64,000 bases of DNA, from positions 1 through 64,000 of the forward strand of contig JABIHA010000086.1 of the NCBI GenBank assembly GCA_018649885.1, written 5' to 3'. Numbering within the stretch: position 1 is the first letter of the stretch; each line of letters starts with the position of its first letter. Shown here piece after piece: positions 20,297 through 28,838 of the stretch. The DNA is from Bacteriovoracaceae bacterium (GTDB taxonomy: Bacteria > Bdellovibrionota > Bacteriovoracia > Bacteriovoracales > Bacteriovoracaceae). The translations under genes and the position numbers were made by a program. The notes beneath the pieces were generated by a model that was not told the DNA's origin, searched no databases, and saw only the letters and a program-made list of their open reading frames with translations.

Positions 20297-20383
20297 TGGT
20301 GCCCAGGGCGAGACTTGAACTCGCACAGCTTTGCAGCCGAGGGATTTTAAATCCCTTGTGTCTACCGATTCCACCACCCGGGC
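20297..20383 (-). tRNA. tRNA-Leu (anticodon TAA)
   Basis: Reverse complement GCCCGGGTGGTGGAATCGGTAGACAC-AAGGGATTTAAAATCCCT-long variable arm-GCGAGTTCAAGTCTCGC-CCTGGGCACCA. Confidence 0.97.
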
Positions 20384-22020: not shown

Positions 22021-22533
22021 GTGATGGTCGTGTCAAATACTGACCCATGGGCAATAGAGCAATCTGATTTTTTTGCGTGGACAACGAAGTTAGATACATT
22101 TTTAAACTTTGTAAGTAAGAAAAAAGCAGGTGGGGATGTATGGCCTATAAGTATGGCCAATAGTTGTTGCGGCAGTGAGCTCTATTCGACTTCAAGTGAA
22201 AAATATTTTGGCAATAAAATTTCTGCACAGTTTCTTGAAGATTCTCCAGAGGATTGTAATTTACTTATTATTGGTGGCGTTATTACCAGCAAAATGGCCT
22301 TAGAAATTAAGCAGGTCTATTCCCAGATGTTAACTCTCAAAAAGGTTATGGCCCTAGGAAATTGTTCTTGTGGCGGAGGCCTTTATCCCACTTACAATAT
22401 AGTGAAGGGAATTGAAAAAATCATACCTATCGATATATATATACCAGGTTGTCCGCCAAGCCCTGAAGTAATCCTCGCAGGAGTGCTTCAACTTTTAGAA
22501 GAGGTTTCTGTAACGACTGGGGGCCCTCAGTGA
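22021..22533 (+). CDS. nuoB: Divergent NADH-quinone oxidoreductase subunit B-like protein
   Basis: SCC..E, GNC.CGGG, YN.VKG, PIDIYIPGCPP.PE. Confidence 0.8.
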   Translation: MMVVSNTDPWAIEQSDFFAWTTKLDTFLNFVSKKKAGGDVWPISMANSCCGSELYSTSSEKYFGNKISAQFLEDSPEDCNLLIIGGVITSKMALEIKQVYSQMLTLKKVMALGNCSCGGGLYPTYNIVKGIEKIIPIDIYIPGCPPSPEVILAGVLQLLEEVSVTTGGPQ

Positions 22534-24155
22534 AAAATTTGGAAGAAAAATTAAACTTACACCGCGGGGGCAATGACACTGGTGAAATTTTTGTCGAGGG
22601 AGATCCAAATTCAATTAATAGTGAATTGAATTTATTGAAAAATCAATTTGGGTTTTGTTATTTTCTAGATATGTATGCAGCTGAGTGTCCTGGAGATGAT
22701 TTTGATTTTAAAATTTATTACTATATTTTAAATTTAGATGAAAATATCAGAATTAGGTACACAGTTTCAATTTCATCTAAATTTTCGATGCCTTCAGTTA
22801 CTAGTATTTGGAAATGCAGTGATTGGTATGAGCGTGAAATTCATGAAATGTACGGAGTATATTTTGTAAATAGAAACCTCGACCGATTGTTATTACCTGC
22901 AGGATGTTCTGAAAAACCGATGTTAAATAGTTTTCGAATGGGACAAGAAATTGAAGCGACGACTCCCTTTGGCCCCTATTTTACAAAGAGAAATCAAAAA
23001 GACCCATTAAAAAATTGGACGAAAATTTCAACGTGGACCAAGTCTACGCATTTAAGTTTTAAGCTATGGCTACAATCTGATGAAGGAAAGGTGAGTGATT
23101 CTATTGTTGAAGTGGGGTTTCTACATCGAGGTGTTGAGAAGTTGTGCCAGAATCTGAATCTCTTTCAATTGTCTCCTTATATTCAAAGGGTCAATTCTCA
23201 CAGTTTGTTTTGTGGAGAGTTATCTTGGCTTATGGCCATTGAGCAGAGGCTTCAAATAAAAATACCTCCAAAGGCTATGGCAATTAGGATGCTTTTGGCC
23301 GAATTCTCAAGAATCTGGGAGCATTTCTATTTCGTAGAGCAAGTTTGTCTTAAATTAAAAATGGATAAGGACATTCGAGAATTTCAATTTTATAAAGAGT
23401 ATATAACAGAATTGTTTGAGAATTATACTGGTAGACGTCAGTATTCGAATGTCTTCATTGGTGGTGTTCCCTCTGAGTTGCAGGCAGGATGGATTACCTC
23501 TTGTTATGACTTCTTACCCAAGTTAGAAATCTTTACTTCCAAAAAAATTAGAGAATTATCAAAAGATTACTTTTTTTCAGAAATCCTCAGAAGTGATTCC
23601 ATCGATGGCAACACTGCTTTAGAGCTCAGTTTGACTGGACCAACACTAAGGGGATGTGGCATTAATTTTGATATACGCAAATCTTTTCCTTACTATCACT
23701 ACGAAAGTGTAGATTTTGAAATCCCTCTTGGAAAGCATGGGTCATCTTTTGATAGGGTGCTTGTTAGATTGGAAGAGGTTCGTCAAAGTACAAGTATTAT
23801 TTTGCAGCTCCTCGACAATTTGCCCACCGGAAATTTACTAGATGAAGGCCATGAAATAGTCTCCCTTTTTAAAGCACAAGATGATGGAAATTTTAATGCT
23901 TTGGATTTAATGAACTTGATCGATGGAGTGAAAATATCAAAAGATGTTTCCTATAGCTCAATTGAGGCAGGTTCGGGAGAGTGGGGAATTCATTTACACG
24001 GAGATGGATCAAATAAGGCTTCAAGGCTTAGAATTTCTCCTCCTAGTTTTTCATTATTACAAGCATTTCAAAGTTTAGTTATTGGAAGGGAAGTCAGTGA
24101 GTATGGCGCTTTTCTTGAATCCTTTGGTATTAATTCAAGTGAGGTTGATAGGTGA
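22530..24155 (+). CDS. nuoCD: Divergent fused NuoC/NuoD-like protein
   Basis: W…DWYEREI.EMYG (NuoC); GFLHRGVEK, TGP.LRGCG…D.RK..PY..Y, DR.LVR.EE.RQS, C-terminal EVDR (NuoD). Confidence 0.8.
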   Translation: MKNLEEKLNLHRGGNDTGEIFVEGDPNSINSELNLLKNQFGFCYFLDMYAAECPGDDFDFKIYYYILNLDENIRIRYTVSISSKFSMPSVTSIWKCSDWYEREIHEMYGVYFVNRNLDRLLLPAGCSEKPMLNSFRMGQEIEATTPFGPYFTKRNQKDPLKNWTKISTWTKSTHLSFKLWLQSDEGKVSDSIVEVGFLHRGVEKLCQNLNLFQLSPYIQRVNSHSLFCGELSWLMAIEQRLQIKIPPKAMAIRMLLAEFSRIWEHFYFVEQVCLKLKMDKDIREFQFYKEYITELFENYTGRRQYSNVFIGGVPSELQAGWITSCYDFLPKLEIFTSKKIRELSKDYFFSEILRSDSIDGNTALELSLTGPTLRGCGINFDIRKSFPYYHYESVDFEIPLGKHGSSFDRVLVRLEEVRQSTSIILQLLDNLPTGNLLDEGHEIVSLFKAQDDGNFNALDLMNLIDGVKISKDVSYSSIEAGSGEWGIHLHGDGSNKASRLRISPPSFSLLQAFQSLVIGREVSEYGAFLESFGINSSEVDR

Positions 24156-24637
24156 TCATAAAAAAAAGTCATTACAAAAAACCTAGCTTTCATTTTGAGA
24201 TTTTAAGAATCTGTTTTTCAATCTTGCAAGGTGTGAAACGCAAGTGGATAAAAAGATGGGAAGTAAATAAATTTACAATTAATTATGGCGAAGAAGTTTT
24301 TTATTCAAATCGTCATATGGGATTTCCCTCTCTTAAAATGGATTTGGGTCAATCTTTGATTTGTGATGGCTGTAAGCTTTGCAAGAAAATTTGCCCAACA
24401 AATTGCATCGAAATTGATTTGAAAAATGGGGATGGCAATGGGAAAGACAACCTTGCTTGTTTTAGTATTGATTTAAGAAGTTGTTTCTATTGTAATTTAT
24501 GTGTAAGTGTTTGCCCTATATCTGCTATTGAATTTAAAAATGGCTTTTTTTCAGCACAAAACAATGTTGATAAATTTAAAGTAGATTTACTAGAGAGATC
24601 TAATAAACAGTCCCCACCATATAACTTATTCCATTGA
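24152..24637 (+). CDS. nuoI: NuoI-like 2[4Fe-4S] ferredoxin
   Basis: CDGCKLCKKICP and CFYCNLCVSVCP motifs; follows nuoCD. Confidence 0.7.
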   Translation: MIIKKSHYKKPSFHFEILRICFSILQGVKRKWIKRWEVNKFTINYGEEVFYSNRHMGFPSLKMDLGQSLICDGCKLCKKICPTNCIEIDLKNGDGNGKDNLACFSIDLRSCFYCNLCVSVCPISAIEFKNGFFSAQNNVDKFKVDLLERSNKQSPPYNLFH

Positions 24638-24682: not shown

Positions 24683-24754
24683 TGTTCCAAAAGTAAGTTG
24701 TATGAACAATAAAAAAGTCCGTCCCTTGTGCGAAATCCAACTACGTCTTATAAG
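24683..24754 (+). promoter_or_regulatory. Unit 1 operator and sigma70 promoter
   Basis: TGTTCC-N14-TGAACA (24683-24708); TTGTGC(24726)-N17-TATAAG(24749). Confidence 0.7.
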
Positions 24755-24760
24755 TTATCC

Positions 24761-24947
24761 ATCAATGAGGGATAGGTTTTTGTGGCGACTCCAAAAGTTA
24801 GTTCCATCATTCATGACAGACCTCCGTATTTTGTGCACCTTGATTTGAGTCGCACGTTTATAGGCCGGGATCTTCGGGTCCCGACCTTAAAATTTTGAGA
24901 GAGAGATTAAATTATCCGGCCTTCCTAAATGGAAGGCCTTTTTTTTT
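24761..24947 (+). ncRNA. Predicted structured small RNA, copy 1
   Basis: Invariant motifs at 24779-24792 and 24819-24842; GCGACTC/GAGTCGC pairing; C-UUCG-G hairpin 24862-24887; terminator 24918-24947. Confidence 0.75.
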
Positions 24948-25002
24948 CAAAAATTCCAATACTTCCCTGTAATTTTAGGTCATTGTAGATTTCTCAGAGA
25001 CC

Positions 25003-25074
25003 TGTTCCATATTGGTGATTTCGGAACACTTTGTTCCAAAAATAATTGAGAAAAATTGGGTAGTGACCTACAAC
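25003..25074 (+). promoter_or_regulatory. Unit 2 operator and sigma70 promoter
   Basis: TGTTCC-N14-GGAACA-N3-TGTTCC (25003-25037); TTGAGA(25046)-N17-TACAAC(25069). Confidence 0.75.
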
Positions 25075-25080
25075 ACACTT

Positions 25081-25264
25081 AGTCAGAAAGAGACCAAGTG
25101 TTTGTGGCGACTCCTTATGTTTGAGCTCTTTCTATCACGACGACCTCCGTATTTTGTGCACCTTGTAAGAGTCGTACTTTTTTGGCCAGAATTAAGCAAG
25201 CTGGCCAAATTTGGGGAAGAGAGAATAAAAATAGGCCCTCATAAATTGAGGGCCTTTTTTTTTT
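25081..25264 (+). ncRNA. Predicted structured small RNA, copy 2
   Basis: Invariant motifs at 25101-25114 and 25142-25165; hairpin 25181-25209; terminator 25234-25264. Confidence 0.75.
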
Positions 25265-25327
25265 ACTCTCTAGCTTCAATTAGTAAAATCCTCGTAATTT
25301 CAATCAATTGTAGAATTGCCAGAACTG

Positions 25328-25399
25328 TGTTCCATTTGTGATTGTTCGGAACACTTTGTTCCAAAAGTTGTTGAGAAAAATCTGGTGGTGACCTATAAC
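25328..25399 (+). promoter_or_regulatory. Unit 3 operator and sigma70 promoter
   Basis: TGTTCC-N14-GGAACA-N3-TGTTCC (25328-25362); TTGAGA(25371)-N17-TATAAC(25394). Confidence 0.78.
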
Positions 25400-25405
25400 A
25401 CGTCA

Positions 25406-25587
25406 AGTCAGAAAGGGAATGAACATTTGTGGCGACTCCTTGTGTTTGGACTCCTTCTATCATGACAGACCTCCGTATTTTGTGCACCTTGTATGAGTCG
25501 CAATTTTTAACCAGAAGTAAGCTAGCTGGTTAAAGTTGAGAGAGAGAGAATTTTTAATAGGCCCTTCTAAATGAAGGGCCTTTTTTT
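25406..25587 (+). ncRNA. Predicted structured small RNA, copy 3
   Basis: Invariant motifs at 25426-25439 and 25468-25491; hairpin 25506-25534; terminator 25560-25587. Confidence 0.75.
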
Positions 25588-25623
25588 GCTTCAACTCAGA
25601 CTTGTGAATTTATCTCCAGGGAG

Positions 25624-25695
25624 TGTTCCTAATTAATGCCTCAAGAACAGTTTGTTCTGGTACTCGTTGCTCGCTATGCGTAATAGGGTTATAAG
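25624..25695 (+). promoter_or_regulatory. Unit 4 operator and sigma70 promoter
   Basis: TGTTCC-N14-AGAACA-N3-TGTTCT (25624-25658); TTGCTC(25667)-N17-TATAAG(25690). Confidence 0.75.
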
Positions 25696-25701
25696 CTTTT
25701 T

Positions 25702-25833
25702 ATTGAAAGGAAATGAAAATTTGTGGCGACTCCAAGATTTGGTTTCCTCCTTCAAGACAGACCTCCGTATTTTGTGCACCTTGATCTGAGTCGCATATTA
25801 ATGGCCGAATCCACCCGATTCGGCCTTTTTTTT
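25702..25833 (+). ncRNA. Predicted structured small RNA, copy 4 (short form)
   Basis: Invariant motifs at 25720-25733 and 25760-25783; terminator 25803-25833 directly after the core. Confidence 0.75.
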
Positions 25834-25870: not shown

Positions 25871-25942
25871 CGTTCCAATTGTTCTGTATCGGAACGGTTT
25901 GTTCCAAAATAGATTGTACCGAGAAACGCACTGCGCTATAAA
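25871..25942 (+). promoter_or_regulatory. Unit 5 operator and sigma70 promoter
   Basis: CGTTCC-N14-GGAACG-N3-TGTTCC (25871-25905); TTGTAC(25914)-N17-TATAAA(25937). Confidence 0.72.
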
Positions 25943-25948
25943 CTCTCT

Positions 25949-26091
25949 ATCGGATTCTTTGAATACGTTTTAGCATGTTTTTATATTTGGCCTTAAAAAG
26001 GCCAAAGCTCCTATTAATTTAGGAGAGGGGAAATCTCTTGGGGAAGGGAAATAAAATGAGGGCCATTATTTATTAATGGCCCTTTTTTTTT
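25949..26091 (+). ncRNA. Predicted small RNA from unit 5, lacking the conserved core
   Basis: Same promoter architecture; hairpins 25986-26006 and 26008-26025, purine tract, terminator 26059-26091. Confidence 0.5.
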
Positions 26092-26755
26092 CAGTAAAAG
26101 GATCTTTCACACTGCCTTGTCTGGCAATGCCAAGTAACTCAATATAGTTTTCTCTTGGGTATTCACTGCCACCAAGAGACTTAACTACAGGGGTGACCAT
26201 CTGGGTGTCCATCCACTCAATTCCATTTTGGTATAAAAATTCCATCACCCAAATGAGTGCAAACTTTGAGGCGTTATCGCTTTCAAAGAACATGGATTCT
26301 CCTGAGAAAACTCCTTTCATAAAGACCCCATAGAGCCCACCGATGAGTTTTCCACCTTCGTCTTTGACCTCAACGCTGTGGGCGTAACCCGCCCGGTGAA
26401 AGAGCCTGAAAGCTGATTGGATTTCATCAGTGATCCACGTACCGCCCTCAAGCTTTCTATTTCCTGAATTAGCGCATCTGCTAATAACTTCATCAAAGCA
26501 AGTATCAACACTTATAAAATGATCTGATTTATTAAAGGCCTTCTTTAGACTTCTAGAAATATATAAATCTTTGTAAAAAAGTATTCCCCTAGGGTTTGGA
26601 CTAAACCAGGCCAGTGGGTACGTACTTGAAATAGGCCAAGGAAAAATTCCCTGCGTGTAGGCCAAAACCAAGGAAGGGATTTCTAGATCTCCGCCTATTG
26701 CGAGAAGTCCATCTTCGGTAGCACTTTCAACAGGAGGAAATTCGATTATTGGCAA
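26066..26755 (-). CDS. aat: Leucyl/phenylalanyl-tRNA--protein transferase
   Basis: GLLA.GGDL, AY..GIFPW, AHSVEV, GGLYGV, F.GESMF, ASK.AL, DTQ. Confidence 0.95.
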   Translation of the reverse strand: MPIIEFPPVESATEDGLLAIGGDLEIPSLVLAYTQGIFPWPISSTYPLAWFSPNPRGILFYKDLYISRSLKKAFNKSDHFISVDTCFDEVISRCANSGNRKLEGGTWITDEIQSAFRLFHRAGYAHSVEVKDEGGKLIGGLYGVFMKGVFSGESMFFESDNASKFALIWVMEFLYQNGIEWMDTQMVTPVVKSLGGSEYPRENYIELLGIARQGSVKDPFTEKKRAINK

Positions 26756-27964: not shown

Positions 27965-27998
27965 TTGTACTGTGTTCCAATTTACCGTAGTATGAGCA
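27965..27998 (+). promoter_or_regulatory. Putative sigma70 promoter of the HTH gene overlapped by an operator-like site
   Basis: TTGTAC(27965)-N17-TAGTAT(27988); TGTTCC-N14-TGAGCA at 27973-27998. Confidence 0.4.
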
Positions 27999-28028
27999 AG
28001 CACTAAACGGGTTACGGAGTAAAATCAG

Positions 28029-28838
28029 ATGCTTACAGACTATCGTACTGTATTAAGAGAGGAACTAGCACGCCGAACTGCTATTAATAGTAGTTATTCA
28101 TTAAGAGCGTTTGCTAGGGCCTTAGAGATGGCGCCATCGGCGTTATCGGAAATTCTCAACGGCAAAAGACCGCTGTCTTTCAAGAAAGCACAAATAGTTG
28201 TTAAAAAACTATGCTTGTCTCCAGAAGAACAGGAAGTCTTTATTAGTTCTATTGATGGCAAGTATCGCCCAAGAGCTAAGAAGGTCGATCAACTAGGTGA
28301 TTTAGGTAGAGACTATTTTCTTGATAAAGATAGATTCTCCCTTGTGGCCGACTGGTATCACTATTCTATTATGGGTATGGCAGAACTCTATGAACTTCCG
28401 GAGCAGATTGAAATTGTTGCGGAGAAATTAAATCTTCCCATTTCAAAAGTTACTGATGGGATAGAAAGATTAAAAAGAGTTGGGCTTCTTGTTTTTACTG
28501 ATGATGGAGTTTTAAAATACGTTGATCCTGTGACTAGACACAACTCAGAGATCCCATCTGAAGCCTTGAGAAAGCACAACCGAGAAATAATTTATAAGGC
28601 CCTTGAAAGTTTGGACAACACACCCCGAACTAAAAGAGACATCACTTCAATGACTATATCAATAAATAGTAAGAATATAGGAAAGGCAAAAGAGAAAATT
28701 GCCGAATTTAAAAAAGAGATGTACACGCTGCTCAAAAGTGGCGCAGATGATTGTTTAGATAAACTATACAATTTGAATATCAATCTTTTCCCATTAGAGA
28801 ATATTGGCGGCAATAAAGGGGGAAAAGATGAAAATTAA
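28029..28838 (+). CDS. TIGR02147/DUF4423-type HTH DNA-binding protein
   Basis: YR..L..EL..R…N..YSLRAFAR.L…PS.LSEILNGKR, W.H..I, R.ITS.T, Y.LNI.LFPL pattern. Confidence 0.8.
   Translation: MLTDYRTVLREELARRTAINSSYSLRAFARALEMAPSALSEILNGKRPLSFKKAQIVVKKLCLSPEEQEVFISSIDGKYRPRAKKVDQLGDLGRDYFLDKDRFSLVADWYHYSIMGMAELYELPEQIEIVAEKLNLPISKVTDGIERLKRVGLLVFTDDGVLKYVDPVTRHNSEIPSEALRKHNREIIYKALESLDNTPRTKRDITSMTISINSKNIGKAKEKIAEFKKEMYTLLKSGADDCLDKLYNLNINLFPLENIGGNKGGKDEN

Follow-up and report, generated by a model that had tools for sequence, protein, structure and literature searches.

Four neighbouring sibling non-coding RNA genes with a predicted 5′ hairpin and loop-pairing helix in a marine predatory bacterium

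Introduction

The 1.4-kb gap that separates nuoI (+) from the convergent aat (-) in a marine predatory bacterium of the Bacteriovoracaceae contains several copies of a similar sequence, and the question raised by this locus is which fold and which function RNAs made from it would have. An earlier note, based on the letters of the DNA, had proposed that covariation between the copies supports a 5′ hairpin combined with a loop pseudoknot or a two-state switch, and that the RNA could be ligand-binding, catalytic or a protein scaffold rather than a simple antisense RNA. Here, the stretch of 64,000 nucleotides that carries the locus (the window, C8:1-64000) was analysed together with the rest of the host genome (5.4 Mb, 92% complete), the contigs of which are labelled C8, C23, C24, C32, C57, C135, C138, C141, C143 and C147 where they are cited. 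The nearest GyrB among 236 family genomes was 73% identical, which places the host in a deep, isolated lineage whose close relatives are missing. As judged from its sequence, the array is a real, uncatalogued and lineage-restricted group of four neighbouring sibling non-coding RNA genes, and its RNA is known from this one uncultured lineage.

Organization of the array

Between the nuoI-like gene (24152..24637, +) and aat, which encodes leucyl/phenylalanyl-tRNA--protein transferase (26066..26755, -), lie four units that carry a common core, with RNAs of about 130-190 nt, and a fifth unit that lacks it. Each unit is about 320 bp long and has its own promoter-like and terminator-like sequence. 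In several relatives nuoI and aat abut or have one unrelated gene between them, indicating that the array is an insertion in this genome. The core consists of a 14-nt loop, an invariant 24-nt linker (GACCUCCGUAUUUUGUGCACCUUG) and a helix partner; it is confined to units 1-4, and exactly four copies were found in the genome, all at the array. Conservation follows blocks: the promoter elements and operator, the loop, the linker and the helix are retained, the spacers diverge, and the 5′ hairpin (P1) diverges with its pairing kept.

RNA copy 1 (24761..24947, +; about 187 nt from an inferred start) comprises the P1 hairpin with the loop at 24779-24792, the linker (24819-24842), the helix partner (24847-24853), hairpin 2, a purine tract and a terminator (24918-24947). 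Copy 2 (25081..25264, +; about 184 nt) has its loop at 25101-25114 and its linker at 25142-25165, followed by the helix partner GAGUCGU (25169-25175), a hairpin (25181-25209), the purine tract and a terminator (25233-25264). The same order is found in copy 3 (25406..25588, +; about 183 nt), with the loop at 25426-25439, the linker at 25468-25491, the helix partner at 25495-25501, the hairpin at 25506-25534, the purine tract and the terminator at 25559-25588. Thus, the core of units 1-3 is followed by a further hairpin and by the purine tract. Unit 4 ends early: its short-form RNA (25702..25833, +; about 132 nt) has the loop at 25720-25733, the linker at 25760-25783 and the helix partner at 25788-25794, and then at once the terminator (25803-25833). 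The coreless unit 5 (25891..26092, +) would, from a predicted start at 25949, give a transcript of about 144 nt with hairpins, a purine tract and a terminator (26058-26092), the last of which extends over the stop codon of aat, encoded on the opposite strand.

In units 1-3 and 5 a tract rich in purines (GA) lies after hairpin 2 and before the terminator, at 24898-24911, 25213-25225, 25537-25550 and 26019-26050, and in some folds it can pair with pyrimidine-rich parts of its own RNA. The invariant linker includes a self-complementary GUGCAC (24833-24838 and the equivalent positions), which could let copies dimerise.

Promoters, terminators and a candidate operator

A sigma70-like pattern, TTGnnn-17-TA(C/T)AAn with an A at +7, was present in 5/5 units. 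The unit 1 promoter (24683..24754, +) was assigned by sequence pattern, with -35 box TTGTGC at 24726, a 17-nt spacer and -10 box TATAAG at 24749; upstream it has half-sites TGTTCC (24683-24688) and TGAACA (24703-24708) and no full palindrome. Unit 2 (25003..25074, +) has a half-site TGTTCC at 25003, an operator-like palindrome GGAACACTTTGTTCC at 25023-25037, -35 TTGAGA at 25046 and -10 TACAAC at 25069. The corresponding elements of unit 3 (25328..25399, +) are a half-site at 25328, an operator at 25348-25362, -35 TTGAGA at 25371 and -10 TATAAC at 25394, and those of unit 4 (25624..25695, +) are a half-site at 25624, the operator GAACAGTTTGTTC at 25645-25657, -35 TTGCTC at 25667 and -10 TATAAG at 25690. 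In unit 5 the operator lies at 25891-25905, the -35 box at 25914 and the -10 box at 25937. None of the five promoters was flagged by a stock promoter scan, in which a final T is required. Each unit ends with a GC-rich hairpin and a U-tract; eight terminator-like sites were counted, compared with 1.4 ± 1.3 in shuffles, and the UAAAU terminator loops reported in the earlier note were as described there.

The candidate operator, GAAC-N5-GTTC, is located 9 nt before the -35 box in units 2-5. In combination with the promoter geometry it occurred four times in the 5.4-Mb genome, all within the array. Among the relatives the operator-promoter pattern gave 35 matches in 32/236 genomes, by inspection no more than a reversed control, so that only the genomic context of these matches counts. 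Of the 35 loci, 33 were examined. A TIGR02147/DUF4423 gene directly followed the pattern at 7/33 of these, and in 5/7 of these regulator genes an ATG lay 7-8 nt past the -10 match, lending independent support to the promoter geometry and the start sites. The exact ACTTT spacer was found at 10 relatives' loci, five of which precede TIGR02147 genes and five genes for proteins whose starts resemble signal peptides (by eye). The candidate operator GAACACTTTGTTC stands 9 nt before the -35 box of TIGR02147/DUF4423 genes at L249, L258, L263, L265, L275, L279 and L280 and at C143:10872-10960 (L285) of the host, and before secreted-protein genes at L247, L253, L261, L262, L277 and L278. Many of the TIGR02147/DUF4423 genes that follow it are near-leaderless. 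A candidate operator for this large uncharacterised family, shared across the Bacteriovoracaceae by near-leaderless regulator genes and secreted-protein genes, may matter as much as the RNA.

In the host genome, an operator matrix trained on 13 relatives' sites ranked three array operators first, a rank that is partly circular because the training sites were picked with the array's own pattern. Two sites at the divergent promoter of a TIGR02147 paralogue on C143 (C143:10960-11736) ranked next, and the product of this gene is the best candidate regulator of the array. A second TIGR02147/DUF4423 helix-turn-helix (HTH) gene only 2 kb from the array (28029..28838, +) is not the best candidate, since its upstream region has only an operator half-site (27973-27978). 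About 20-25 TIGR02147/DUF4423 paralogues are encoded in the genome, several with related but different upstream palindromes, and the host proteins cluster mainly with those of Bdellovibrionota. A search of the PDB gave no sequence relative of the C143 regulator. We infer that the C143 regulator, or a factor controlling it, drives the array. The autoregulation-like position of the operator suggests that the TIGR02147 protein itself would be the binder, although another factor could bind.

Predicted structure of the RNAs

The sequences on which the earlier note relied were all present where it had placed them, with GAGUCGY starting at 24847, 25169, 25495 and 25788. The note had paired the variable segment of each copy with that copy's own leader. 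Seven of the nine P1 stems that it quoted formed without mismatch, several of them relying on G-U pairs (three consecutive in the copy 2 inner stem); the other two contained one mismatch each, an A-C in the copy 3 stem AGAAAGGG/CTCCTTCT and a G-G in the copy 1 stem TAGGTTTT/AAAAGTTA. With the loop held open, the energies of the four cognate leader/variable pairs summed to -36.9 kcal/mol, compared with -17.3 ± 4.7 kcal/mol for composition shuffles (0/1500 as good) and -14.8 kcal/mol for random genomic partners (0/1500 as good as the cognate set). The cognate assignment ranked second of 24 permutations, the top one swapping the near-identical copies 2 and 3. When copies 1-4 were folded freely and singly, P1 was distinguished from shuffles in copy 4 only (p 0.19, 0.12, 0.62 and 0.011, respectively). 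The predicted P1 hairpin is supported, as a set, by sequence variation.

The complementarity of the loop GCGACUC to the downstream GAGUCGY was likewise present in all four copies (28/28 cells paired, copy 2 being G-U compatible). Six of its seven pairs are invariant and one changes on one side; no pair changes on both sides, and the helix is therefore a case of conserved complementarity, not of covariation. Its chance probability in shuffled invariant blocks was 0.004-0.007 by length and 0.01-0.02 by energy, and GCGACUC/GAGUCGY was chosen independently as the consensus helix by RNAalifold. The claim that covariation supports a hairpin plus pseudoknot thus stood for the hairpin, by the joint shuffles; for the knot it was not borne out by any two-sided change. 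The hairpins of copies 2 and 3 show the double compensatory change that the note had described; it involves two paralogues and two adjacent pairs only, and may be a single event. Covariation throughout rests on four paralogues because no homologues were found in the genomes searched.

A competing 3′ hairpin of -4.1 to -5.7 kcal/mol was predicted in all four copies. The copy 2 C-to-U change keeps a G-U pair in this hairpin too, and so cannot choose between the folds. In copies 1 and 3 the nested minimum contained the loop helix, and in copies 2 and 4 the competing 3′ hairpin; the pseudoknot lay 1.5-4.2 kcal/mol above the nested minimum in 4/4 copies by a rough Dirks-Pierce estimate, a gap within the error of that estimate. 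In the 3′ hairpin the linker would have its GUGC end hidden; formation of the loop helix would free this end. These analyses support a structured RNA with a predicted 5′ hairpin and a loop-pairing helix; the loop-pairing helix proposed in the note was retained, and the choice that it had offered between an H-type pseudoknot and a two-state switch was not decided by the energies.

Complementarity of the linker to ribosome binding sites

The invariant linker contains the anti-Shine-Dalgarno sequence ACCUCC. When it was compared with 4793 ribosome binding site (RBS) windows (-35..+15, with gene starts from a simple in-house caller), perfect Watson-Crick complements of 13-14 nt were found in three windows; none of at least 12 nt was found in coding-sequence or antisense control windows. 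The candidate targets are two paralogous lipoprotein genes (C138:15864 and C32:2425), where the complement covers the Shine-Dalgarno region, and purB (C147:12145), where it covers the Shine-Dalgarno region and the AU of the start codon. The two lipoprotein sites were counted once because they are 84% identical across the site, leaving two independent loci. Two such loci at a threshold of at least 13 nt were obtained in 14 and 19 of 10000 shuffles and with 7/874 real ACCTCC-containing 25-mers (p 0.001-0.008, the threshold having been chosen after the fact). At 12 nt the corresponding counts were 191 and 245/10000 shuffles and 60/874 real controls, and at 11 nt (four loci) they were 227 and 422/10000 and 94/874.

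By duplex energy C138 was the first of all RBS windows, with the duplexes of copies 1 and 3 reaching over the AUG; the best linker duplex energy was not unusual, 13/66 and 20/63 shuffles being as good. The short seed TACGGAG was not enriched before start codons (rank 44/64). The loop block had no excess complementarity to the 4793 windows, and antisense pairing therefore fails to explain why the sequence of loop and helix is invariant. In the 236 relatives the linker-target 13-mer had eight chance occurrences, none of them Shine-Dalgarno-like, and the target sites were absent from the leaders of homologous lipoprotein genes, whose RBSs shared at most 7 nt (28 windows; 2/30 loci gave none), as would be expected if the RNA is lineage-specific. 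The pairing signal of the linker is modest, and suggests these targets rather than establishing them.

Further complements were noted. The leader of a radical SAM gene (C24:49123-49152, L287) has about 20 nt in common with the C138 and C32 leaders, part of which is a flank not accounted for by pairing with the RNA. Within the window, an 11-nt linker complement (2845-2855, -) falls in the Shine-Dalgarno region of a membrane-protein gene (1609-2838) and a 7-nt complement (28014-28020) in that of the nearby TIGR02147 gene, both within chance. The two lipoprotein targets belong to a duplicated cassette (C138:13847-17917, L216; C32:468-4581, L215) of a divergent HTH regulator, a short lipoprotein and a long lipoprotein of 570-590 aa. 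The long lipoprotein had no Pfam match and no usable Atlas match, and relatives of it are present in 72/236 family genomes.

Searches for related RNAs

None of the Rfam 15 covariance models, which include RydC, csRNA, LhrC, riboswitches and ribozymes, reached its gathering threshold at the array, and the window as a whole passed for one tRNA only. The 48 weak Rfam matches (E up to 10) fell mostly on terminators and hairpins, all far under threshold. ARAGORN identified only tRNA-Leu (20297-20383) in the window, the array being neither tRNA- nor tmRNA-like. Pairing of the loop with a tRNA 3′ end, as in a T-box, was considered and rejected, since inspection of the tRNAs of the genome showed none whose 3′ end is the complement of the loop.

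A BLAST search with the region against 150 family genomes returned mainly terminators and short pieces, with no full core, and a search with one core against 236 family genomes gave four short chance matches. The covariance model R2, run on 235/236 family genomes and 150 phylum genomes (with laxer settings on five), gave seven weak matches, all inside open frames of 242-710 codons. The matches listed by a GTDB-wide scan with a loose pattern were due to chance, so that among GTDB genomes the homologue search is in effect confined to this phylum. A metagenome scan with a 19-mer recovered one contig (L151), which is not independent because it is 100% identical to the window over 3960 nt; four low-share DNA sequencing runs showed no variants over the pieces covered. 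Viral scans returned 0, 25 and 1 stretches, all unrelated and mostly coding DNA, and BLAST against phages and plasmids gave no match to the array. The main text of a motif-discovery study (PMC11109978) does not mention Bdellovibrio or Bacteriovorax, and its supplementary tables could hold a related motif. The top search results of the literature included no study of small RNAs in Bacteriovorax or Halobacteriovorax and none naming TIGR02147; DUF4423 appeared once, in a proteomics table.

Proposed mechanism and alternatives

We propose, at a probability of about 0.55, that the array encodes co-regulated, trans-acting sibling antisense small RNAs. An internal seed, exposed by the knot or in one of two states, would prevent the initiation of translation. 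The four siblings would have been produced by tandem duplication at this locus in a single deep lineage of Bdellovibrionota, and the copies would be turned on jointly by an HTH protein of the TIGR02147/DUF4423 family, for which the C143 paralogue is the most likely candidate. The variable P1 and the invariant 7-bp loop helix would combine into a pseudoknot of the H type, or into one state of two, and would thereby keep the linker single-stranded. Pairing of the linker with a few mRNAs, across the Shine-Dalgarno region and the start codon, would then block their translation. No match to PF17209 (Hfq) or PF04352 (ProQ) was found in the 92% complete genome, so that pairing would depend on long seeds and perhaps on KhpA; the genome encodes a KH protein of the KhpA/B type and also carries csrA.

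The earlier note had suggested a ligand-binding, catalytic or scaffold RNA over a simple antisense RNA. This suggestion found no support: the units have their own promoter-like and terminator-like sequences, no gene lies downstream, no riboswitch or ribozyme family matched, and the only functional signal found was antisense pairing at ribosome binding sites. A protein-binding RNA, that is a sponge or scaffold in which loop, helix and linker form one tertiary surface, the copies raise the dose and the complementarity to mRNAs is due to chance, is nonetheless an alternative of some, if low, probability. It would account better for a loop and helix that do not vary in sequence: P1 drifts, but the helix and the UUUGUG loop beside it are unchanged, which is more than base pairing needs, the loop block has no mRNA targets, and UUUGUG occurs twice in the core. 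Yet the array is flanked by nuoI and aat with no partner gene nearby, conserved GGA repeats for CsrA are lacking although csrA is present, and the RBS complements of the linker exceed chance. We regard it as improbable that the small RNA is itself gated, the 3′ hairpin masking the seed end and the pseudoknot unmasking it, so that a ligand or protein stabilising loop and helix would switch antisense pairing on; if true, this would be a small RNA under riboswitch control, amplified to four copies and connected to the TIGR02147 regulators that predatory bacteria carry. Ligand-sensing or catalytic RNAs as a class (an aptamer, a self-cleaving ribozyme, or a two-state small RNA with a ligand-unmasked seed) would fit the two competing folds, which are close in energy and differ in the exposure of GUGC in the linker. 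We consider them slightly less probable again, given that no Rfam gathering score was reached and no ribozyme or riboswitch was among the 48 weak matches, that each unit is terminated and then followed by the next promoter or by convergent aat, leaving no gene downstream in cis, and that no related RNA was found in the other genomes searched. Aptamer and ribozyme classes are usually widespread.

A recent tandem or mobile expansion of a non-functional or selfish repeat, conserved only through recent duplication or gene conversion, would be consistent with the occurrence of the array in one lineage and its absence where nuoI and aat abut in relatives. It is very doubtful, however, as the core occurs four times at one locus only, conservation is blockwise with P1 diverging and its pairing kept, and no terminal inverted repeats of the kind expected for a MITE or dispersed repeat were seen bounding the units. 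Slightly less credit still can be given to the partner RNA of a protein system (a type III antitoxin, a retron/DRT ncRNA or a guide RNA) or to short coding units. Tandem pseudoknotted repeats are reminiscent of type III antitoxins, and the genome has one reverse transcriptase; but no toxin, reverse transcriptase or nuclease gene is adjacent, the reverse transcriptase is on contig C141 in a neighbourhood without similarity to the array, and the copies are separately promoted and terminated. Against coding units, the short open reading frames across the core are in different frames, and the copy 2 leader has no ATG.

Comparison with known small RNAs

Type III antitoxins (ToxI, TenpI, CptI) consist of 34-60-nt H-type pseudoknots repeated in tandem within a single transcript that precedes a toxin gene, RydC is a single-copy RNA of about 60 nt, and LhrC1-4 are arranged in tandem. 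The array differs from the antitoxins in that its units measure about 320 bp and are separately promoted and terminated, and in that no toxin gene is adjacent. In passages of two papers (PMC4337610, PMC8383071) RydC is described as an enterobacterial trans-acting small RNA with a pseudoknot and an exposed 5′ seed, which needs Hfq. To that extent it resembles the array RNA as proposed here, in which a pseudoknot fold would also go with an exposed, putative seed in a trans-acting RNA; in contrast to the RydC of those passages, the putative seed of the array lies inside the RNA, in loop 3 of the knot, the search for Hfq gave no match, the RNAs measure 130-190 nt, and there are four tandem copies. 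An internal seed displayed by the knot needs a different model, according to a passage by the RydC authors (PMC4337610).

The Streptococcus csRNAs, as portrayed in parts of PMC4211561 and PMC4507080, are CiaR-dependent siblings, partly in tandem and additive in effect, that pair at the Shine-Dalgarno/AUG region of comC. The array would share with the csRNAs of those accounts several siblings under one transcription factor and pairing at the RBS region. It has no sequence relation to them, its regulator is probably a TIGR02147/DUF4423 HTH protein and not a response regulator, and a pseudoknot is proposed, a word absent from a review on sibling small RNAs. The LhrC RNAs of Listeria are multicopy, Hfq is dispensable for their target pairing, and CU-rich motifs block the RBS of envelope-protein mRNAs, as stated in a section of PMC8383071. 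Three short redundant CU-rich motifs are described there, whereas the array has one long invariant linker with 13-14-nt complements and a putative knot, and no sequence match to LhrC. On our preferred reading, the array would work like the csRNAs and LhrC as sibling RBS blockers and like RydC in combining pseudoknot and seed; by the Rfam comparison it is a member of none of these families. If so, it would represent an uncatalogued small RNA family in predatory bacteria with testable targets and an internal seed shown by a knot.

Other features of the genome

Upstream of the array, divergent nuoB, nuoCD and nuoI-like genes (22021-24637) score under the usual equivalog cut-offs, and their synteny with aat and agmatinase is conserved across the family. 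The reverse transcriptase on C141 (C141:14099-15415) is a lone protein of 438 aa; it has no link to the array, and a partner gene was not evident. The genes for tRNA-Ser(GGA) and tRNA-Cys(GCA) each occur twice, with identical sequence, on different contigs (C23/C57 and C23/C135, respectively).
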